Shown here piece by piece: positions 1-32,866 of a stretch of 64,000 nt of DNA. The stretch comes from a virus (lineage: Duplodnaviria > Caudoviricetes). Numbering within the stretch: the stretch's first letter is position 1; every line of letters begins with the position of its first letter. The notes under the pieces were generated by a model, which had not been told where the DNA came from, made no database searches, and saw nothing but the letters and a program-made list of their open reading frames with translations. The stretch lies in the IMG/VR virus record IMGVR_UViG_2868569063_000004, positions 32,001-96,000 of that record; one strand, given 5' to 3'. Both the position numbers and the translations under genes were made by a program.

Positions 1-3000
1 AGCGTGTACTTCTACATTTGCTCCTTTAGAATTTGCTGTACTTTGAGCTTGCATAAGCTCATCAAATTCTTCTTTATTGTTTACTTCGCAATCAACAACT
101 AATTTAGCTCCATTGGTAGGGGCAGATTCAATTAATTCGGTGGCCTTCTCAACATCCTCTTCACCATTAACTTCCATATCAATAGTAGCTGTAGTATCAG
201 ATGGCATAGATTCAATTGTAGATTTTGCTTGTTCAAAACTACCTTCATTAGAAACATCACAGTTTAAAGTTACAGTGGATCCAGAAACGTTTTGTAAGTT
301 TTCAATATCTGATTCTGCTTCACTGGTATCTGCTTCAACATCAACTTTTGCCGTTATGTCGTCATTTGACATTTTAAGCAATTGGTCTTCTGCAGTTTGT
401 ATATTATCAGTATCTACTAATTTAACTTTAGAATCAGTCTGAGCTTGCTGTAAAGTTTCAAAAGCTGCATTAGCATCTTGAGTAGCTTGATCCAGAGTGT
501 TATCCATGCCTTTTTGGTATAATTGGGTCTGGACATCCATTTCATTCTTAGCTTGCATAAAGTCTTGAGCAGCTTTTACAATACTAGAACTAGAATCGGC
601 TTGAGATATATCAGAGGAGTTATATTCTACGTCTTGCTCATGCGAAATAGCTCCTGTATACACAGTCTGGAGTTCTTCGCCACCAGTAATCTCTGGATGG
701 TATTTACCATCCCGATCTCTATACTTATCTACTTCTGTTCCTAAATCAGTTACTTGCTGATGAATAGAATCTAAATCAGTTGAATCAAAATCAAATTTAT
801 AAGTTTTTCCTGTGAGATCAGTTAATTCATTTTGAGCTTCTTTCGCTTCGGTAACTACAGAATCCAGATTTTTTGTTGCATCAGTAGTATCCGTATTAAC
901 CTTTAAAATACCTAAACCTTCAAGAGCAGTAAGAATCTGGTCTTTAGACAACTGAGTCTTATCTGCTAACTGTTGTATGGCATCTTCAGCCTGTTCCATA
1001 CCCTCAACATTATAAGCACCATCATTTAATTTGATGCCATCTAATTGTGTACGGTTATATTTAGAAAGGGTTTCAAATGACTTTTCAGTAGCGGCATCAT
1101 TTTCCTTATGTGCAGCAGTAAGAGCTTCTAATGAGTGTGTGTATTCAGCAACTCTGTCAGGATCATCACCTAATCCCATCTGTTCAGCAGTCTGTGGTTT
1201 CTCCCAAGACCCCTTAGTAGTTTCTTTAGAGGAATTACTACTTTTCTCAGAATCTTTTAATTTACCAGCTTCTTTTAAAGCCTCAATAACAGAACGAGCT
1301 TGGTCTTTAGTTAAACCGAGTTTTTCACATAAAGATTCAACAGCTTTTTCTGCATCACCTAATTCAGTGTCCCATTTACCATCATTGAAATCTATACCTT
1401 CTAACTGTTCAGAAGTATATTTTCCAAGAGTGTCTACTAAAGAAGTAACATCTGTGTTCTGTTCTTCATATGCTTTATTGATACCATCAAGAGCTGTAGT
1501 AACAGAAGCAGAATCTGTTATGATGCCATCCATTAATGAAGATACATCTGTTCCTAAAAGAGCTTCAACAGTTGTACCGGCAGAAGCAGCTAGCTCTTCT
1601 TGTTTAGCTTTTAATTGATTAATAGCTGCATTTCGCTGATCATTTGTCAATTGATCATTTTTTTGAACTCTTTTTATCTCTTCTTCGTAGGCTTGCGCTC
1701 CCATGGCAGATGAATTGAAATTATCAATAGCATTTTGAGCAGCATCTTCTGAATAAGACTCCATGTTATCATAGGTTTCTTTTAAATCCTGTTTATATTT
1801 ATTAACTTTATCCTCAGAAGCAGAAATAGCAGTAGTGTTAGTACTATCTGTATTTTTCAGTTCTTCGAGTCGTTTCTGTTCATCTGAAAGGGCAGAAGTA
1901 AGTTCTTGAGTTCTGTCTATACCTTCCTCTATAGATGATATAAAGTTATTATCAATACCATAATCACGAAGACGACCGAAGTTAGCACTCATGAATTCTT
2001 TGCTGATTCCCATTGATCGAGCGGCTTTACTCATATCATCTATGTCAAATGACCATCTTTTACTTGCATCATCATAAGATGCCATACCCTTAGATTTAAG
2101 ATCAGCTAAGAAATTATTAACACCTGTCTTATCTTCTGTGAGATATCTTACAGCTTTACCATAGTTCTCTGCAAAGTTTGCTCTATCATCTGAACCTGTA
2201 GGAGAAATAAGAGCGGCAAATGATTTAAAATCATCTGTACCTACAAGACCTTTATCATATGCATCTTTAGCATTCTTTAGTCCGGCGACAATGTTATTAT
2301 ATTTATCTCCGGCATTCTCCGTACTCTGGGCACGTTGCCACTGAGAATAATAGGAAAGAAGTTCCTGTTGCTGTTTCTTAGTTGCTTGCCATTCAGACTG
2401 AGATTGCATATAAGATAAATATTCGTTTCTAGCATCTTTTAATTTATCTTTTTCAGAATCATAGGCAGCTTTTTTATCATCTTCGTCTTCAGTTCCTTTA
2501 GCTTCTTTCCATGCTTTTTTTGCTTTATTTGTTACATCTGTTTGATCCTTAATAGCTTTGGTCTGTAACTTAATACCCTTTTCGAAATCTCCATCAGTGG
2601 CTTCAGCCTGATATTCCGTAAAGGTTTTCAAAGCATCTATGTTTAGTTTGATACCATCAGAAGTAGTGGTGAATAAATCATTAACATTTTGCTCAATGCC
2701 ACGAGGATCTTTCACATCTTTGAAAGCAGTAGAAAGGATCTTAACATTGTCTTTAGAAATTCCACCTGCAGAAGTAGTCTCTGTAAGAATAGTTCCCATA
2801 GAAGAAAGAGTAGACTTAGCAGTTGATACTTTCGTTTCCATTGAATCTAAAGAAACGGCTGCTTGATCACTCATATTTTTAGCTGCTTGTTTAGCCTTTT
2901 CGAATGCCGTATAAAATTCATCAATTGAACTTAAATCTTTATTATCAGTGATAACCTGTACAGCTATTTCAAGTTCATCTTGTGTAGCATTTTTTAGATC

Positions 3001-4740
3001 TTCTCTTACTTTTTCGGCATCGCCTTTAGTTTTGCTAGCCTTTGCTCCTTTCAGAGCATCTCTAACCCTATTAAGACTATCTTGATTCTCCCAAACAGTA
3101 TAAGCCTTATCATTGTCATCGTATTCAGTATGAGCAAAACCAAAAGCTTCGGCTAAAGTACCTTTAGTCCAGAAGTCGCTTTGAGAAATATCTGCTATAG
3201 ACTCAAGGACATCATCTCTTCTTGCAGCAAATTCTCTTACAGTTTCCTGGTCTTTAGGTTCCATTTCAAACAGTTGAGACCAAAGCTTTTGTTGATCTGG
3301 AGTAGCAGTAGCCATAGGGTTGACTACATTGTTACGGAGCCATGTGTCCATGTCTTTGCCGGATTCTTTAAAATTATTAAGCAATCTGGCATTGTCCGTA
3401 GAATTAAGCATATTATTCAACTGTGATTGAAATTCTGATGCTTTATCTTGATCGTCCCAGCTATCAAAAGAATCAATAGTACTTGCCATTGATTTGATAG
3501 AAGAAACCATTTCTCTTTTAGAGGCATCTATAGATTCTTGAGTATTAACTAAATTAGTATGAGCTTCTTGAAGTTCGCTATTATCTGAGTTTAAAACACT
3601 GGCAGCTTCACTATTAAGAAAATCTAACTGTTTACCATCAAATTCAAGAGTTATCTTTTGACCATCCGCAGATTGCTTATAACCTTTTATTGCTTTTCCA
3701 AATGTATTACCAAGTGCATCATATGCAGTTTGATCCAGTGTATAGGTGATGGTATCTTCTCCTTTTGTATGCTTTTTAAGCATGTCGGAAAATTTTTGTA
3801 CAGAATCAACTTTATATTTAGCTGCATCATATGCATTTTTGTATTCGTCTTGTTTGCCCTTATTCTCTCCTAAAGCAGTCTCATACCCTTTATACTGATC
3901 GCTAATATTTTTCTTTGTATCATAATAAGTAAGATTCCTCTGTAGCTTTAGATAATCATTGACCTGAGTGTTTAAATCCTCAGCATTAGTTCCTGCATTA
4001 AGAATAGCATTACCCTGAGAATCCCATGAACGTGTGAGACTAGGAGCAGCGGCAGCAATCTGATTACTCGTATCTAAGAAATCCTTATATTCATCATCTG
4101 TAAGACTAATATTTTTAATAGAATTACCGGATATTTTTACACCTTTGGACAATTCTGTGTATTTGGAAGTAAGTTCTCCAAGAGAAGCTTTCTGATCCTC
4201 ATAGGCTTTAGTTTGGGATTGAATGGATTCTTTTGCTTCTTGGCCTTTAGCAATTAAGTTCTCATTTTTATGAACGAAAGCGTCAATGCCTTTACCAAGC
4301 AATGAGAAAGCTCCTTGTACAAGCATTCCAACACCAGCAGAAATAAAAGCATTGCCAATCATTGAGAGACCAGCAGATGCCATACTTTTTAGACCATCGG
4401 ACCATTTGCCTTGTTTCTGTTGATCAGGTTTCTCCACCTCATTCTCTCTTTTAAAATCAGTGAGAGTCTTAGCATTAGTAGCTATTTGCTTGCCATAATC
4501 TTTGGCTCTTTGACTAGCATTCTTCGTTACTTCATTCGCTTTAGCCATACGTTGCTCGTTGTCTGTAATGGCCTGACCATTGTTATCAAGTTGCTTGTTA
4601 AGGTCTTTAAGAACTTCTAAATCATCTGAATATGCTTGATAATTTTTATTGGCTTCTGCATAGCCTTTTGCTATAGCAGCATTACGTTGAACTCTTCGTG
4701 ATTGTGGTAAAATTCCTCCATCTTCATTCTTGGCGAAAAC
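1..4740 (-). CDS. Tape measure protein, exon 2 (runs off window; absent from ORF track)
   Basis: Frame starts VFAKNEDGGILPQ at 4740; spot checks at 4380 (ASAGLSMIGNAFISAGVGML) and at 60-1 (ELMQAQSTANSKG) are open in the same frame. Ala/Ser/Lys-rich helical composition; no Shine-Dalgarno upstream; joins exon 1 in frame after splicing. Confidence 0.85.
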
Positions 4741-4758
4741 CAAACTGTGTGATATAAT
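4730..4758 (+). promoter_or_regulatory. Sigma-A-type promoter for intron cargo, straddling the 3' splice site
   Basis: TTGGCG-17 nt-TATAAT with extended -10 TG; upstream of SD AAGGA and ATG at 4803. Confidence 0.6.
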
Positions 4759-4802
4759 ATAGCAAATCTTAATTACTATATATAATAAAAAGAAGGAACA
4801 AT

Positions 4803-5309
4803 ATGGAAGAATTATTATTTTGCAATAAATGTGGAAAGACCAGTACATCTTCTTCTTATAAAATAGGGGATAGATGTTATACCTGTGAAATTGGAACCTA
4901 TATAGGCACTGGTATTGATTGGTCTACAGCATATATGGAGTTATCAAAAGAATATGAGAAAACTCATGACGGTCATTGTCCCAGTCATTTGGAATCATCT
5001 GAGATATTTAGGCAAAAATATTTTTATGGAAAGTTAGACAATGAAGTAGATTACTCTGCCGTTAAAAAAAGAAAATATAGTGAATCTCCTGAAGGAATAG
5101 AAGAGCAAAACAGGATAACAGATAGATGGTATGCCAAACAGAATGCTCAGAAATTCTCTACTGGGCCTAAGTGTCCAATCTGCGGCAGTACAAACCTTAA
5201 GAAAATCACTGGAACAAGAAAAGCAATGAAGATAGGTCTGTTTGGTCTTTTTGGAGCTGGTGACCTTGGTAAGACTTATCAGTGCTGTAAGTGTGGAGCT
5301 AGATTTTAA
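4803..5309 (+). CDS. Zinc-ribbon protein (intron cargo)
   Basis: 168 aa; CxxC pairs at the N-terminus and in the C-terminal PKCPICGS...YQCCKCG; SD present. Confidence 0.8.
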   Translation: MEELLFCNKCGKTSTSSSYKIGDRCYTCEIGTYIGTGIDWSTAYMELSKEYEKTHDGHCPSHLESSEIFRQKYFYGKLDNEVDYSAVKKRKYSESPEGIEEQNRITDRWYAKQNAQKFSTGPKCPICGSTNLKKITGTRKAMKIGLFGLFGAGDLGKTYQCCKCGARF

Positions 5310-6226
5310 TGAACATACCTGTAAATGCTAAAAGACAATTAGATAAAAGAGATATATATTGTATCTACCGGAGACCCAAAAAAGATAAAGATATATGCAC
5401 TTTACCTGATAGGCATTATTGTCAAATGTGTACGGCTAGACCACAGACAACATGTCGCTTAAAGGTTTCTCAGTATCGAAATGAACTAAATGCTCGCAAT
5501 AACAAAAAAGAATATCTTTTTGGTGTAGAAGTAGAACATGTTAGTAAAATTGATAAGAAGCTGAAACCAGCACAACATTCATTAAGCTCATTTACGGAAA
5601 GTTCTTCAAAAAATGCCAGTACAAGAACGTACAACTTGAATCATAATACTGTAGGCTCATATATTGATTATGGACCCAAATGGGATATTAAAAATTGGGC
5701 TGATTTTAAATATAAAGAAACCGTATATGTATTTAAGGGATTTTTGTATTGTGCAAAACATCATTCTGATTCATTGAGTCATGGACAAGTTATTATAAGA
5801 AATTTAAAAGGTACTAAAGAAAAGCATAGAGTAAATTTAATTTATTGTGCTAAGTGTAAAAAGTATTATATTGATGAAAGCCATTATAAAGATTTTATAA
5901 GACAGAAAGTATTGCTTGATTTTAGGATTAGGGCAAGCCATTCTCGTGGATATGGCTTTGGCGGATTCAAATCTGAATCTGAGTTACATCTTTATGGATA
6001 TAATGCACAAAGCTCTACACCTAAGTCGGTACGACAACAAGTTTTGTATGATGTTGTTTCCAATAGGTTAATGCGTGTAGAGGTTGTTATTTCACACTTA
6101 CAAGGACTCATTTCAATAAATGAATCAAGAAATGATAGAGCTACTGTTATCAAGCGCTACCGAGAAGATATGGATTTTTTATATGAGAAATTTCCAGGAG
6201 TAAGTATGGAATATAGAACCTTATAA
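5309..6226 (+). CDS. Hypothetical protein with Cys/His clusters (intron cargo)
   Basis: 305 aa; TAATG overlap with upstream gene; CQMC, CAKH and CAKC motifs. Confidence 0.75.
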   Translation: MNIPVNAKRQLDKRDIYCIYRRPKKDKDICTLPDRHYCQMCTARPQTTCRLKVSQYRNELNARNNKKEYLFGVEVEHVSKIDKKLKPAQHSLSSFTESSSKNASTRTYNLNHNTVGSYIDYGPKWDIKNWADFKYKETVYVFKGFLYCAKHHSDSLSHGQVIIRNLKGTKEKHRVNLIYCAKCKKYYIDESHYKDFIRQKVLLDFRIRASHSRGYGFGGFKSESELHLYGYNAQSSTPKSVRQQVLYDVVSNRLMRVEVVISHLQGLISINESRNDRATVIKRYREDMDFLYEKFPGVSMEYRTL

Positions 6227-6227
6227 C

Positions 6228-6332
6228 AAGAGCTTTAAATGTAATACGTGCGGATATACATAATGATAGTTTATGAGCAATTTAATCATAATCTGCCGGA
6301 AGTGCGGTTACACATGGTGGCTAAGAAGATAA
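6228..6332 (+). pseudogene. Two remnant C-termini of zinc-ribbon genes
   Basis: KSFKCNTCGYT* (6228-6263) and IICRKCGYTWWLRR* (to 6332) resemble the C-terminus of 4803-5309. Confidence 0.55.
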
Positions 6333-6863
6333 TTATGACAAATAAAATACTCTATCATCAATAATATCACATAATTTTTGTGTTTCAATTTCATTTTTTA
6401 ATAGGAAACATTTTCTTTTATCAAATATAAAGTAAAAGATTGTTTTAACATACAAGACAAAATATTTAAATTTTCTTGTAATAAATCTTTTATTCATATA
6501 AAGAGATGTTTTTATGAAACGAATTTTGCATTTGGAGGAAATATTTTTCATGGATGAATTCTTTCGTAAAATATTAAATGATTTTGTAGATGAGTATAAT
6601 CAACAGAATATATAAAATTTAATGAACTCACGTTCTGGATATACAAAGTTGTCGAATATTGTTATTATACTACTAGGTATATTATGGTTATAGGTGCTGC
6701 ATTATAACTCGCTGCACGATAATATACTTGATCATTTCTTTTGATCATGCAGAAGTGTTGGCATACATTCTGTATTGTTGATGCGGACGAAGAATCTGCC
6801 CGTTCTGGGCAATACACTTCCCCAATAAAGAAATTTATAAGGGAAGGGGGTGAAAAGAAGAAT

Positions 6864-7049
6864 ATGAATACTGGAATAATAATATCTCTTGGTAGTCTTT
6901 TACTTGTTGTAATATTAGCTGGTCTATATTATAACTCGAAAAATCATACCGTTGATCAAATTTGCAACCATCCAGAATTATCTGATGAGAAAGTCAAATT
7001 TATCACCGGAATGATGAAAAGACAATACAAGAATAAAAAAGTTGACTAA
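6864..7049 (+). CDS. Small single-TM membrane protein (intron cargo)
   Basis: 61 aa from MNTGIIISLGSLLLVVILAGLYY; G-rich SD; followed by hairpin at 7121. Confidence 0.65.
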   Translation: MNTGIIISLGSLLLVVILAGLYYNSKNHTVDQICNHPELSDEKVKFITGMMKRQYKNKKVD

Positions 7050-7120
7050 TCGCTAATAATGTTCTACTTTATCATTTAATTACTTCGTCATATGTATTTC
7101 TCTTTTTAAAATTTTTAATA

Positions 7121-7152
7121 GAAGGAGAACTGTCACAGCAGTTCTCCTTTCT
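7121..7152. terminator. Hairpin terminator between convergent cargo genes
   Basis: AAGGAGAACTG-tcacag-CAGTTCTCCTT. Confidence 0.65.
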
Positions 7153-7224
7153 GTGCACCAACACTTTGCATAATACTATAGGAAAGTTAACAATCTCGAC
7201 TGCATTGAATACAACCGAAAAAGA

Positions 7225-7395
7225 TTATTCGTATAAGTCATATCCTGGGAGTTGATTAGCAATTTCTTTTGGGTAATTACTGATAAATTTTGTTCTGCCA
7301 ATATCACTGATTTCTATAAGTAAATCTGTAATTTCGTTTGAGCTTAGATTTTGAATATATTCAGGAACTAATCTATCAAAAATGTTTTTATCCAT
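7225..7395 (-). CDS. Small hypothetical protein, 56 aa (intron cargo; not in ORF track)
   Basis: MDKNIFDRLVPEYIQ...GYDLYE*; SD AGGTG. Confidence 0.55.
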   Translation of the reverse strand: MDKNIFDRLVPEYIQNLSSNEITDLLIEISDIGRTKFISNYPKEIANQLPGYDLYE

Positions 7396-7440
7396 TAAAT
7401 ACACCTACTTTCAAAACTATATTATGGAGGTTTAAAGATT

Positions 7441-7551
7441 ATGGAAATATTAGAATGTCCTCTTTACAAAGAGTGTAAAGAAGAGGAATGTCCGTACTTT
7501 GAAAATGAAGATTGTACGTATTATACTAAGAAAGAGCAGGAGACTGAATAG
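7441..7551 (+). CDS. 36-aa Cys-rich peptide (intron cargo)
   Basis: MEILECPLYKECKEEECPYFENEDCTYYTKKEQETE*; SD GGAGG at 7426. Confidence 0.55.
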   Translation: MEILECPLYKECKEEECPYFENEDCTYYTKKEQETE

Positions 7552-7564
7552 TCTTTTGCTCTTT
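7531..7564. terminator. Possibly bidirectional terminator inside the intron cargo
   Basis: AAAGAGCAGGAGAC-tgaata-GTCTTTTGCTCTTT. Confidence 0.6.
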
Positions 7565-7659
7565 TGATGAATTTTGTAAGTATGTTTTATAAGTATCACA
7601 AGTAATACCTCTTATAACAGGAGAATCAATTATCTGACTTTTCTCTTTGCTAATAAACA

Positions 7660-8124
7660 TTAGCTCCAATTTACTCCCCATGATGTTACCTCCTCGAAAG
7701 TTATTTCTGGGAATATTTTCTGAACAACAGAAAAAGTAGTTAGTTTGACTTTTGTTTCATTTGTTTCTTGAAAATAGTAATGCACTAATTCTTCAATAAA
7801 TGCGAATAGTTGCATGTGTTGATTGTTAGATGTAATTATCCGTTCCATGGAGTATACTAAAAAAGACATACATCTTCCATAAGTGGTTGCTTCATTTTCG
7901 GTGACAGAAAAACTGCCATCTTTTGTAAATATTAGACTTACAGGAAATAATTTAGTAGGATCAATATTTTTTTCATATAAATGTTTGCTTAAGGATTCTA
8001 ATCCTTTAGTAAACAAATTGGCCAGTTCCTTTGACATTTCATAAGTTGCATTCATAAATAAGCATCCGTCAAAATATGGCGGAGCAATTGGTGCATAAGT
8101 TCTGATAGAATTATTTATTATCAT
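7660..8124 (-). CDS. Hypothetical protein, possible metallopeptidase-like fold (intron cargo)
   Basis: 154 aa; SD AGGAGG; EELVH resembles a degenerate HExxH motif. Confidence 0.7.
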   Translation of the reverse strand: MIINNSIRTYAPIAPPYFDGCLFMNATYEMSKELANLFTKGLESLSKHLYEKNIDPTKLFPVSLIFTKDGSFSVTENEATTYGRCMSFLVYSMERIITSNNQHMQLFAFIEELVHYYFQETNETKVKLTTFSVVQKIFPEITFEEVTSWGVNWS

Positions 8125-8586
8125 AGTTTTACCCTCCTATGTGAAATATAGCATAGAAGAATAATAAAGTAAAGATTTGTGCTTACATCACCTTTGCACA
8201 TAAGGTAAGATTGCTCACAAGAATAAGATGTATTTACCCTTTAATTTATTCGGCGTAAGCTGCCTAACAGTCCTGACTATTCCTTCTTGATCCGGAGACC
8301 AAGTTCCCATTATAGTCGATGAACGTTCTTCTCTATAAAATAAAGAAGCTTCGCTGCAGACCACCCATATATATACATTGTTACTATATCTATTACATTA
8401 CTGTAGTAGGGGAGTAGTATATACTTCGGTTCACCCTGAATGCCAAATTAAAAGCATTTCTCTATTCCTTCGAATAAAGACAGTTTCGGTTGTTTGCTTA
8501 GTAACCCCTTTCTCATATGAGATCGTTCCGTGTCACCACCAGGTTACATGGGGCGTTTTCTAAAGGACCAACTGATAATTTGTCCC

Positions 8587-11118
8587 ACCCCAGTTCATAG
8601 CATGGCTAACAAGCATACCGCCGACTCCGGCTAAGGATTTATTAAGTCCCAAACCATTTAAGAGCCCTACAGCGCCGTTGCCAACATCAAGCAATCCTTT
8701 AAAAGTATTAGTACTACCTTCTGATTGCCATAACTGTGACCAAGATTCTTTAATTTTAGTTGTTTTTGCTTCGATAGAATCAAGGTATGTATTAAGCTCG
8801 TTCTGAGCTGAATTTTGATAATTATTTGCGGAATCATTATAAACATCTGTAAGCAATTCAGGATGCTGCAATATGGATGCAAGAATATTACTTCTATTTT
8901 TTCCTGCCATCATTTCAAGCAGAGCAGCCTGTCTATTCTGACCATCTGCCAAATCTTGCTTACCAATATCATCCCAAACCTGAGAGATATCTTTTAAAAT
9001 ATCATAAGTATCTCTATAGTTTCCATTCATATCAAGAATAGAAACTCCAGCCTTACCGTTAACGGCAGTAAGAGATTTAATATTTGAATTAAGTTTAGAA
9101 GTGGTCTCTACAAGACCTTCTGTATCTTCACCCATAGAAGATAATTCTTCAGCAGAAGTGCCTCTAAGTCGTAATGCAATTGTTCTAAGACCAGCACCTA
9201 CCTTCGATGGATCCTGCACTACACTATTTGCTGCCGTAACAAGAGCAACTGACTTGTCAAAGTCGTTCCCCGCTGCTACCAATGCTGAACCTGAATCCTG
9301 TAAAGCAGTGGCAATTCCGTCTGTAGAAATTGCATAGTTGTTACCAACAAGATTCATTTTATCAACGAGATCCATAGAATCATCAACTTTTACGTCGTAT
9401 GCTTTCATCATGGAAATCATAGCGGTTGTTGCATCATCTATAGATCCGAATTCTGATACATTTTTTAAAATACCTGTATTTTTAGCTAAAGTCTGAGATT
9501 CATTTAAGCTATATCCAAGACGAGAAAAATCAGCAGCACTACTAGTAATCTGAGTGGTTGTACTACCAATGTCTTTGGCATCAGTTCTAGCCTGAGTAGT
9601 AAAGTCTCTATATTCTTGTTTTGTACCATCTGATGTTTTCTTAAGTTCAGTCATCGCTGAATCTAATTCTTTTATTGATTCGACACCGGATCTGACACCT
9701 GTTGTTAATGCTTGGAATCCAAAATTACTTACAAGATACTGGCTAAGACTACGGAACTTTTGTCCCATTTCAGAAATATAACTAGATAAAGGTTTTACAC
9801 TTTGAGTAACTTTAGTAAGAGATTGGTCAATATTACCTGGACCATTTTTATATGCTAATTGATATTTTTCAAATACACCAGACCCTCTATCAATAGTAGC
9901 ATACATTTTACCTTGTGCTGCATTAAACTCTGTTGTGTATTTGCTTCCTTTTGCCAGATCTGCTGACATTTGTTCCATCTTAAGACGGACCTTATCAGAT
10001 GCTGGATCTAAATCTGTACCAATATATTCTGAACGGCTATATTTATTTGGAATACGTGAGAAAAACTGATTAGTATTACCGAGATACCTAGCTTGACGAT
10101 TGGCTTCAGAGCGAAGAGCAGCAAAACGTACTTGCTCAGTGTCTCTTTCGTCTCCAGTAAGAGTCGCAAGACTATCACGAGATTTTTTTAATTGCTCATA
10201 TGTATCATTGAAAGATTTTAATCTTTCATCATAACCTTGTCCTAGAGTTTTATCTAATGGTTTACCATTGTTAGGATTATATACTTGAGCCATTTTATTG
10301 AATGTCTTCTGTTTCTCACCCAAATTAGTGATAACTTTGTCGTATTCTGAAGCACTCTGAGTCATTGCTTTGTATGCTTCTTGATTCTTAGCCTGTGCTC
10401 CTCGAATGTCAGATGCAGAAGTAACCCAATCAGAAGCAGTACCTTGATTTTGTATCTGTCTAGCCAGCTGAGAATTTCTATGTCCTATAGTTCTCTTTGA
10501 CTGTTTATAAGTACTTTCATCAATAATCCCACTTACATACTGTTCCTGTAGGGTTCCTATTGTCTTCATATTTCTCTTAATTTCAGCTTGAGCTTGTCTA
10601 AGAGTAATGCCTGTAGATCTTGCAGTATTAGAAGAACTAGTGGTTTCTCCAACAACTATTTTACCGTCTTTAGTTTTTATATTGTCTCCAACAGTAAGCT
10701 TAATAGAGCCCATGTTTTTAGCTGTAGATTTTATTTCATTAAGTTTGGCTAAAAGTCCATCAAGCTCCCCCATAATACCTTGATTTACGGAAAGTTTTAC
10801 TTCTCCTAGATCAAGCTTGTCCTGGTACCTTGACAGCTTACTGACTGTATTAGCCATAGATTTTAAAGCTTCTTCAGGATTTACCATCTGTTCTACAAGA
10901 TTAGATCCTTTAATAACAGGAGTATTTTTAGCGGCTTTGGCAGTTGCTTTACTTATTGTTTTTACCGCTGTCTGTGCATTTTTAGTTAACTGTTTAGTAT
11001 TACCTAATTCCACACCTAGTTTAATGTGCTTCTCTTTTAAAGAATTAATTCGTGTTTCTAATGCATTTAGCGCACTGTCTTCAACTTCTACACCAACGTT
11101 TATTATATAATCAGCCAT
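8587..11118 (-). CDS. Tape measure protein, exon 1 (844 codons; TP901-type core)
   Basis: ELDSAMTELKK...DFSRLGYSL...KVGAGLRTIALRLRG core; follows the tail genes. Unspliced ORF runs 8 codons into the intron. Confidence 0.92.
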
Positions 11119-26811: not shown

Positions 26812-26883
26812 CATCCGGTACGGGAATTGAACCCATGTTACTGCATTGAAAGCGCAGTGTCTTAACCGCTAGACTAACCGGAC
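26812..26883 (-). tRNA. tRNA-Glu(TTC)
   Basis: Cloverleaf with CT-TTC-AA loop and GGTTCAATTCC. Confidence 0.88.
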
Positions 26884-31793: not shown

Positions 31794-32866
31794 TCTCTTT
31801 CTCCTTCCATGTAAACTTTTTTCATAGTAAAATGTTCTCCGCAATATTCTATATCCCCAGATGGATCCTTTACTGGTATTTGAGCATATCCTTCAGTACG
31901 TGAGAGAAGATTTTTGATAATAGTATCTCCTGACATTTCCCAGATAAAAGATTTTCCTTTTTTAGAACTGTATCCTAAATCAACAAGGATATTGCAGAGT
32001 TTCTCTGGATCAGATACATATTCAGCGCATTCAATTTTAAATGCTTTATTATATGAAGCAGAAAAAGCATCTGTTTTTGTGGTACAGGATCTGTTCATTT
32101 GTTTATTGAATTTATCATATATGCGTTCTATAAGTACTTTATCCTTATTTGTGTAGGTGGCATCTGACTTCAGAATAGAACTGTCAAACGGTACCTTACT
32201 TTCTTTTACATCAGCCAGTGTTTTCTCAATTTCCCAACAGAGTTCATTGACTACACAGGTTTCTGCATTGACTGGATAGAATTCTTTATAGAATTTGAGA
32301 AACTCTGCCTGTTCTTCAGTCAACTCTTGTGATGACAGCAGCTCTTCCAGTGGGATGTTAAACCTGGACCTGCTCACGGCGTCTGATGTTTTGATGTAGT
32401 CTTTGTATTCCTTCATGAGAGTAGGGTAGTTGTAGATGAAGAAATATGGCTTCTTATCTGCACAAATTCTCTGATTGAATTCCTTCTTAGTTATTTCTTC
32501 TGGTGTATCTGTTTCTTCTATACGGTTGTAGCTATTGTCATACCAATGTTTTGGCATAGGTTTAGCGATGATTCCTTTAGCTTTATCAATAGAGTTCTGT
32601 TGGAACAGCTGCCCACACAATATCCTGTAGTCTAAGACTTTATATTCCTCACTGTCTTTCGGGAACCTTGCCTGTAAGCATATCTGTGAAGTGATAACAT
32701 TAGTAATAGGACCAATCGCATCACCGAAAGAACCTTTATTAGCTTGTATCATATCTGTTTCAGTCGGAACTACCTTGTTTCCTTTACGTTGGATGCAATA
32801 GATTGGCGGTAGGTTTTCTGTATGTTTTAATAAGATAGTATTGTTAGTAGTAAACATTAAGTCTCC
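31784..32866 (-). CDS. YonO-like RNA polymerase, exon 2
   Basis: Begins GGA GAC (GD) after omega-G, completing NGADCD-GD; QNSIDKAKG motif. Confidence 0.88.
   Translation of the reverse strand, partial: GDLMFTTNNTILLKHTENLPPIYCIQRKGNKVVPTETDMIQANKGSFGDAIGPITNVITSQICLQARFPKDSEEYKVLDYRILCGQLFQQNSIDKAKGIIAKPMPKHWYDNSYNRIEETDTPEEITKKEFNQRICADKKPYFFIYNYPTLMKEYKDYIKTSDAVSRSRFNIPLEELLSSQELTEEQAEFLKFYKEFYPVNAETCVVNELCWEIEKTLADVKESKVPFDSSILKSDATYTNKDKVLIERIYDKFNKQMNRSCTTKTDAFSASYNKAFKIECAEYVSDPEKLCNILVDLGYSSKKGKSFIWEMSGDTIIKNLLSRTEGYAQIPVKDPSGDIEYCGEHFTMKKVYMEGEREWI

Follow-up and report, generated by a model that had tools for sequence, protein, structure and literature searches.

Open reading frames (ORFs) that sit in the peripheral loops of group I introns, as in the P6a loop of T4 td or in the nrdE and nrdF introns of SPbeta and Bacillus, are accompanied by stems that close these loops. 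For the T4 sunY intron, a 1992 study reportedly found the core to be activated by a long-range pairing that involves nucleotides ahead of the distant 3' junction. Here we describe a predicted group I intron that splits the tail tape-measure gene of a prophage, and the base pairing that may close the loop of its cargo. The intron lies in a stretch of 64,000 nucleotides (nt), called the window throughout, which belongs to an IMG/VR provirus record (IMGVR_UViG_2868569063_000004, positions 32,001 to 96,000), and extends over 8586..4741 (3846 nt) on the minus strand. PMC10020454 cites Michel et al. (1990, Genes Dev 4:777) for P9.0 of the T4 nrdD (sunY) intron, and group I introns with ORF-bearing loops are treated in PMC2988022 and PMC2504315. 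In engineered cis-splicing precursors of circular RNA, the second step across a long insert gains in yield and accuracy when homology arms are placed beside P9.0 and omega-G, largely independently of the arm sequence (PMC11417360).

Like T4 sunY, the intron in the window is a phage group I intron with its core at the 5' end and coding cargo in front of a remote 3' splice site. A preliminary description of the locus had proposed that a long-range clamp of three paired segments, 24 nt long on its 5' side, closes the cargo loop. The setting it outlined, in which 3.4 kilobases (kb) separate the core from the 3' splice site and inverted repeats flank the cargo, agrees with our analysis. The conservation of the arms suggests a smaller device, and it is plausible that what closes the loop is a stem of a familiar kind, 8-9 base pairs (bp) long, rather than a 24-nt clamp.

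A Predicted Group I Intron Splits the Tape-measure Gene

The two exons and the elements of the ribozyme are located as follows.

8587..11118, minus strand: exon 1 of the tape-measure gene, matching PF10145 and positions 172-922 of phrog_4211; last codon GGU (..N-W-G)
1..4740, minus strand: exon 2, matching positions 990-1514 of phrog_4211 and similar to SPbeta yomI; it leaves the window
8550..8591, minus strand: P1 hairpin, exon GGGGU 8591-8587 with internal guide GCCCC 8554-8550
G4741, minus strand: omega-G, the final intron base; exon 2 begins with G4740 (GUU UUC ..)
8501..8547, minus strand: P2, GUAACC 8547-8542 with GGUUAC 8506-8501, by sequence reading
8275..8413, minus strand: catalytic core, with P3 formed by UCCC 8413-8410 and GGGA 8308-8305, and P4/P6 around UCUGCAGCG 8360-8352
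within 8275..8413, minus strand: P7 (GACUA/UAGUC), P8 (CUUGGUC/GAUCAAG), an R-like element GUUCAUCGACUAUAAUGGG and an S-like element AAGGAAUAGUC, likewise by sequence reading
8201..8274, minus strand: P9 and P9.1 region, with the inner hairpin CUUAU-UCUU-GUGAG 8227-8214

We compared the intron with a close set of 19 IMG/VR loci and 25 metagenome loci, in which the core is 95-99% identical. One further locus, L069, has the same core, and its zinc-ribbon (Zn-ribbon) cargo gene and exon 2 are merely 29-33% identical in protein. Four distant homologs come from Lachnospiraceae genomes: L044, L045, L047 (1.3-1.4 kb) and L046, which carries no cargo (444 nt). Within the close family, intron length ranges from 1687 to 3822 nt when counted from the first 5' boundary that was considered, to which the corrected boundary adds 24 nt. 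The host element is an SPbeta-like gut prophage, and the nearest named relatives of both tape-measure halves are the tape-measure genes of SPbeta-like and other large Bacillota siphophages.

The predicted P1 consists of four G-C pairs and a U8587.G8554 pair at the cleavage site, with the 5' splice site after U8587. In the distant homologs the corresponding strands are GGGU/GCCC (L045 and L047) and GGGU/GCUC (L046). The flank of the guide, GAAAAC (8560-8555), abuts the P1 guide and can form P10 with GUUUUC at the start of exon 2 (4740-4735) by six of six Watson-Crick pairs, one of which is left as a wobble pair by C4735U in L002-type relatives. The resulting junction is in frame and in phase 0 on both sides (..SHAMNWG|VFAKNEDGG..). 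Protein conservation begins precisely at V-F in all tail types, though the tails differ at about 30% of their bases, and the 6-7 bases preceding GG at the 3' end of the intron vary among relatives. Upstream of exon 2, no in-frame start codon is conserved among the relatives, and none at all is present in L015 or L019. An alternative 5' splice site after U8563 (CCUU with GGGG 8508-5) was dropped, since the homologs favor GGGGU/GCCCC with its adjoining perfect P10; the GGGG 8508-5 taken as the guide in this first placement is the 3' strand of P2.

The ribozyme, from P1 to P9.1, fills the first ~410 nt of the intron, and the remainder is exchangeable cargo whose insertion point is a few nucleotides short of the 3' end. 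Its core follows the order GUUCAUCGACUAUAAUGGG, P8 hairpin, AAGGAAUAGUC. P6 and P8 covary with the homologs L041-L047, and P2, P6 and P8 differ in a compensatory manner in the homologs, the helix homologous to P2 being CAGUCC/GGGACUG in L045 and CAGUCC/GGGGCUG in L047; P4 is weak. The inner hairpin of the P9.1 region occurs among relatives as CUUAC/GUAAG, CUUAC/GUGAG and CUUAU/GUGAG, all of which pair (U.G to C-G, U.G to U-A). P1, P10, the core elements and the in-frame junction together allow 8586..4741 to be assigned with confidence as a group I intron.

Rfam returned no intron match at the gathering threshold, nor at E<=10 over 4.7 kb. In a scan of 411 nt, RF00028 (Intron_gpI) aligned to P6-P9 with 17.1 bits, which is below its threshold of 50 (E 0.048). 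RF00028 misses many phage introns. Among GenBank phages there was no DNA match to the region, matches to known tape-measure proteins end about 50 residues short of the junction, and a search with the junction peptide gave no match. No intron-less allele was found that would fix the junction independently; four DNA sequencing runs contained further cargo variants and no intron-less form, and a search for RNA runs that cover the locus returned none. The annotated exon-1 ORF (11118-8563) extends eight codons past the 5' splice site (GTNYQLVL; 8586-8560) to a stop at 8562-8560, and the exon-2 frame is open from 4848 to the start of the window. As the annotated ORF enters the intron, gene callers will report a tape-measure fragment with a false C-terminus.

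A Candidate Closing Helix at the Ends of the Cargo

Five elements at the two ends of the cargo bear on its closure.

8183..8191, minus strand: outer 5' arm GUGAUGUAA, invariant except for A8183G
4749..4757, minus strand: outer 3' arm UUAUAUCAC, complementary to 8191-8183
8168..8177, minus strand: inner 5' segments AAAUCUU-UACU, in cargo module A, upstream of a 154-amino acid ORF
4757..4781, minus strand: tail hairpin AUAUAGUAA / UUGCUAUAU with loop UUAAGAU, overlapping the clamp segments AGUA and AAGAUUUGC
4730..4758, plus strand: predicted antisense promoter TTGGCG-17-TGaTATAAT, spanning the 3' splice site and overlapping the outer 3' arm

In the preliminary description, GUGAUGUAA-GCAC-AAAUCUU-UACU (8191-8168) was paired on the minus strand with AGUA-auu-AAGAUUUGC-uaua-UUAUAUCAC (4777-4749). 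These letters and coordinates are correct, and so is the remark that the pairing favors minus-strand RNA, G8186.U4754 being C.A on the plus strand. The outer helix (8191-8183 with 4757-4749) has 9 bp including one G.U pair. Its 3' arm was said to lie next to omega-G, which holds approximately: the arm stops at 4749, and 7 variable nt separate it from G4741. The duplex was also said to bracket all of the cargo; this is so by position, but the inner 5' segments are part of an exchangeable module, and the inner 3' segments lie within a local hairpin.

The outer arms were compared over 30 relatives. The 3' arm reads UUAUAUCAC in 27 of them, UUAUAUCAU in L069, where a G.U pair results, and UUAUACUAC in L015 and L048, where there is one mismatch. 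The helix can thus form in 28 of the 30, including the diverged L069. The two changes A8183G and C4749U (the latter in L069) both retain a wobble pair (A-U to G.U and G-C to G.U, respectively). On the 5' side, the outer arm is the sole part of the proposed clamp inside the conserved ribozyme block, which ends at 8177/8176. Sequence shared among relatives runs to GCACAA(A) at this point and is followed by at least three unrelated cargo modules (A, B and C). Because three independent modules start right after GCACAA(A), the 5' arm always remains with the ribozyme. The base between TG and TATAAT of the overlapping promoter box is complementary to A8188 in all relatives except L015 and L048; as the promoter does not need this base, we count its complementarity in favor of the closing helix.

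The position of the arms becomes apparent when the window is compared to the cargo-less homolog L046 (Lientehia hominis, NZ_JAJNOR010000004.1). There, the 444-nt intron ends with UAUGUGUUAG, 10 nt past the P9.1 hairpin. The window has this UAUGUG too, and after it come, in this order, the 5' arm, the cargo and the tail hairpin, with the 3' arm and a spacer of 7 nt leading to omega-G. Relative to L046 the arms thus sit just inside both ends of the extra block, and their pairing would restore about the ancestral distance. An inverted repeat also occupies these two places in L045 and L047, with another sequence, (GUAC)AUUUGUGG following P9.1 and CCACAAA(GUAU) in the tail; its positions cannot be aligned with the arms of the window. 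In L045 no other partner ranks above this repeat, though the significance is modest (p = 0.02). The promoter spacer, which is free of promoter constraint, contains the 3' copy of the repeat as its conserved part.

We propose that GUGAUGUAA (8191-8183) and UUAUAUCAC (4757-4749) would close the 3.4-kb cargo loop. The closing helix would stack on the conserved tail hairpin (4781-4757) and leave G4741 7 nt away, near the geometry of the cargo-less relative, in which omega-G lies 10 nt past P9.1. P10 (GUUUUC/GAAAAC) could then align exon 2 for ligation. The invariance of the arms is observed directly, and it is plausible that they pair in the RNA and help the use of the 3' splice site. Taking the comparisons above together with the points against them given below, we consider it about an even question whether the outer 8-9 bp function as a closing stem.

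The two inner segments present a different picture. The whole duplex is unusually strong: with 51-nt windows around both arms it reaches -20.1 kcal/mol, compared to means of -10.9 to -11.6 for dinucleotide shuffles (p = 0.003-0.0075). The 5' arm is the top-ranked partner of the 3' tail across the whole intron, and 2% of natural cargo windows pair equally well with the 5' arm. Conservation of the full clamp among homologs, on which its preliminary description had staked the proposal, fails as drawn, since all three segments are present in 4 of 30 relatives. As relatives diverge after GCACAA(A) at 8177/8176, AAAUCUU-UACU belongs to module A alone, and all relatives whose 5' cargo module is of type B or C lack the pairings AAAUCUU:AAGAUUU(GC) and UACU:AGUA. 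The partner bases on the 3' side vary (UUUGC, UAUGC, UUAGC, UGAAC, UAAGC and UACAU) with no compensation, and these variants combine freely with either 5' junction type. From this pattern we conclude that no selected clamp includes the two inner segments.

The tail hairpin accounts for part of this sequence. Hairpin pairs were counted by a script anchored on the loop: the hairpin is present in 13 of 13 distinct tails, its 7-nt loop UUAAGAU is invariant, changes adjacent to the loop are compensatory, and in L015 the stem is wholly replaced (UAAAUG/CAUUUA). All six of its wobble pairs are G.U on the minus strand, which favors minus-strand RNA. Because AGUA and UUUGC take part in the hairpin, it is incompatible with the inner clamp segment and with part of the middle one. 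We rejected a kissing interaction of the UUAAGAU loop with AUCUUA (8229-8224 and 8211-8206), both sites being inside supported stems. A hairpin UGUGC/GCACA (8200-8178) as last core element was likewise discarded; its outer pairs are broken without compensation in L050 and L060 (G8199A) and in L069 (A8178U).

Alternative Readings of the Arms

A number of observations weigh against a functional outer helix. Alone, the outer 9 bp amount to -10.0 kcal/mol, which is within chance: p is 0.11-0.19 in shuffling, 0.086 when every 19-nt piece of the window serves as background, and 0.035 when the background is limited to AT-rich pieces. With p values of 0.09-0.19, the conserved part of the clamp is thus not significant alone. 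Little can be read from the invariance of the 5' arm, since the block that contains it shows 95-99% identity throughout. The 3' arm is complementary to TGaTATAA, which lies in the extended -10 box of the predicted antisense promoter. This promoter scores higher than any other promoter-like site of the region (10/12 + TG) and reads into the Zn-ribbon gene; its arrangement is kept in L069, and TTGACA-17-TATACT is found at the same relative place in the distant L047. As the 3' arm coincides with TGnTATAAT of this family-wide conserved promoter, which alone predicts conservation of the arm, its conservation cannot be credited to the helix. L015 and L048 (two samples) represent the single lineage with two changes in the 3' arm, which produce an uncompensated A x C mismatch and leave the -10 hexamer intact; because the changed bases in L015 spare the hexamer, promoter constraint explains the 3' arm at least equally well. 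No true compensatory double change in the outer arms is seen in the close family. The arms are unpaired in the global minimum-energy folds of three relatives, most of the 3' arm of L069 is taken up by its tail hairpin, which there extends to 12 bp, and the equivalent helix of L047 is not significant (p 0.16).

These observations can be accommodated if the arms form no functional clamp, an explanation that we regard as possible though on the doubtful side. The outer helix would then be a chance 9-bp match in AT-rich sequence, its 3' arm being kept as promoter box and start region and its 5' arm as the last peripheral element of the ribozyme. The 3' splice site would be found via P10, P9.0, the tail hairpin or a protein; the perfect 6-bp P10 could act alone. 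Conservation that passes the helix end into ..AUA on the promoter side, and the retention of TATAAT where L015 and L048 break the helix, are as expected from this explanation. It leaves aside, however, that some device must return a splice site 3.4 kb distant to the core, that the ends of the block inserted relative to L046 coincide exactly with the arms, that L045 and L047 have their own inverted repeat in the same place with its 3' copy in unconstrained promoter spacer, and that the unconstrained spacer base of TGnTATAAT remains complementary.

The promoter and the closing helix may also both be real. In an unlikely but coherent reading, the last ~45 nt of the intron would be dual-coded, holding the promoter, start region and leader of the Zn-ribbon gene on the plus strand, and the tail hairpin and one strand of the closing helix on the minus strand. 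The RNA would then fold either into the tail hairpin, which covers the arm in L069, or into the long-range helix. In this case the state of the cargo, antisense transcription or binding of the Zn-ribbon protein to the UUAAGAU loop could gate the splicing of the tape-measure message and hence tail assembly.

It is improbable that the full three-segment clamp (~20-22 bp) works in this phage as a lineage-specific reinforcement, combining cargo module A with the tail type of the window. Its duplex ranks first among all intron windows, and AAAUCUU would find its partner in the tail hairpin loop, similarly to UUUGUGG, whose partner in L045 and L047 is the loop CCACAAA. Set against this are its presence in few relatives and the free shuffling of 5' and 3' variants by recombination without compensation; UACU:AGUA and part of the middle segment would moreover require melting of a hairpin that covaries in every variant.

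We think it very improbable that the arms are a DNA-level feature, namely terminal inverted repeats or recombination sites of an element that delivered or exchanges the cargo, with RNA pairing as a by-product. The repeats do flank the block that is extra relative to L046, cargo is exchanged as modules, and the Zn-ribbon protein has weak matches to the transposase zinc-ribbon family PF12760 (E 1.8e-4, below the cut-off). Yet no transposase or recombinase was found in the cargo, the module breakpoints (8176/8177, 8171, 5284 and 6620) are within the span of the arms and not at the arms, and a 16-nt motif of the 5' arm occurs in about 60 other viral contigs as isolated matches, none of which reaches 24 nt.

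That nothing is spliced, and that two separate proteins on either side of an inserted island supply the tape-measure function, is scarcely credible: the Rfam score below threshold speaks for it, and P1 with its U.G pair, the adjoining perfect P10, omega-G, the in-frame junction, an exon 2 that lacks a conserved start codon and the same architecture in distant homologs all speak against it.

The Mosaic Cargo

The genes and signals between the ribozyme and the 3' splice site of the window are listed here.

4782..8176, both strands: mosaic cargo, mostly antisense, with modules exchanged between relatives
7660-8124, sense (minus) strand: ORF of 154 amino acids, cargo module A
4803-5309, antisense (plus) strand: ORF with a double zinc ribbon, adjoining the 3' splice site
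5309-6226, antisense (plus) strand: ORF of 305 amino acids, in the second antisense slot of the cargo
6741-7049, antisense (plus) strand: membrane ORF of 102 amino acids
7530-7565, plus strand: terminator-like hairpin of 16 bp with a T-run, ending the antisense gene block

Blocks 8175-7544, with the 154-amino acid ORF, and 6619-5311, with the 305-amino acid ORF, are each gained or lost as a unit among relatives, and where they are missing other genes can stand instead. The type B module starts with AAAAGCAAGAG.. at its 5' junction, type C is represented by L052, and the break at 8171 is an additional one, seen in run X13. In type B relatives, 8176 is joined directly to the 7530-7565 hairpin. 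Minus-strand transcription of the tape-measure precursor must pass through this terminator-like hairpin.

The antisense double Zn-ribbon ORF (149-178 amino acids) is the sole gene found in every cargo-bearing family member, including L045, L047 and L069. It always lies beside the 3' splice site and has its own predicted promoter. Its Atlas cluster comprises 1768 members, all of them hypothetical. No homing endonuclease is recognizable anywhere in the cargo, and PADLOC, Pfam and Atlas returned no function for the Zn-ribbon, 305-, 154- and 102-amino acid cargo proteins.

The second antisense slot, which is hypervariable, carries the gene of a HEPN protein (PF18736, E 2.6e-16) in L002, L008 and L014 (for example at L008:9480-10028, minus strand), an ORF of 225 amino acids in L014 and L015, and the 305-amino acid ORF in the window. 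The slot resembles a hotspot of accessory or defense genes within the intron, for which PADLOC gave no match. Elsewhere in the prophage, a tRNA gene is found at 26812-26883 on the minus strand (63.6 bits).

Further observations concern the distant homologs. The intron of L046, near oriented 5246-5700, has a P10 of 9 bp. Its host frame meets a stop eight codons past the predicted junction, and a long ORF resumes in another frame ~150 nt further on; a second element could account for this frame break, as could a frameshift or decay of the gene. In L045 and L047 the 3' terminal bases of the intron (AGUCCAG and CAGCCCGG, respectively; last 8 nt) mimic the 5' strand of P2 and covary with its 3' strand (GGGACUG in L045 and GGGGCUG in L047). 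They hint at an alternative pairing of the 3' end, of which no equivalent is seen in the window.

Comparison with Known Systems

If the outer helix is real, it would explain how the ribozyme tolerates 1.3-3.4 kb of freely exchanged, mostly antisense accessory genes in front of its 3' splice site, and it would set the zone of cargo exchange between 8176 and the tail hairpin. It would then help to annotate tape-measure genes that are split in gut prophages and to design group I vectors with long inserts. A clamp of this sort is an expected device and introduces no new principle. What is unusual about the locus is the antisense promoter placed across the splice site, together with the conserved Zn-ribbon gene, which occupies the place where a homing endonuclease normally sits.

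L045, L046 and L047 share with the window the logic of P1 and P10, the insertion-site motif (AAY NNG GGU | RUU UU) and P2, P6, P7 and P8. In L045 and L047, an antisense Zn-ribbon gene with its promoter again lies at the 3' end of the intron and is the only cargo gene there. At 1380 nt (L045), 1329 nt (L047) and 444 nt (L046), these introns are shorter than that of the window (3846 nt); they are GC-richer and are inserted near the 5' end of their host gene. The repeat of L045 and L047 differs in sequence from the arms of the window, and 16-20 nt separate omega-G from its 3' copy, which forms the tail hairpin loop.

For T4 sunY as for the window, the proposed pairing joins a peripheral element that follows P9 to nucleotides a short way upstream of omega-G. 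The cargo of the window is larger (3.4 kb versus ~1 kb), contains multiple genes, is mosaic and mostly antisense, and has no recognizable homing endonuclease. The pairing in the window is a candidate drawn from its sequence, and its 3' strand doubles as a promoter box. As in the ORF-bearing loops of T4 td and of nrdE and nrdF, a basal helix would loop the insertion out of the ribozyme fold. In those introns the helix is a recognized extension of a P element and covaries over many introns, whereas the window offers about 9 AU-rich pairs without compensatory change. The arms would bring omega-G beside the core across a long insert, much as in the circular-RNA constructs (PMC11417360); these are artificial, use the Tetrahymena and other ribozymes, and have longer and GC-richer arms that, unlike those in the window, directly abut omega-G.

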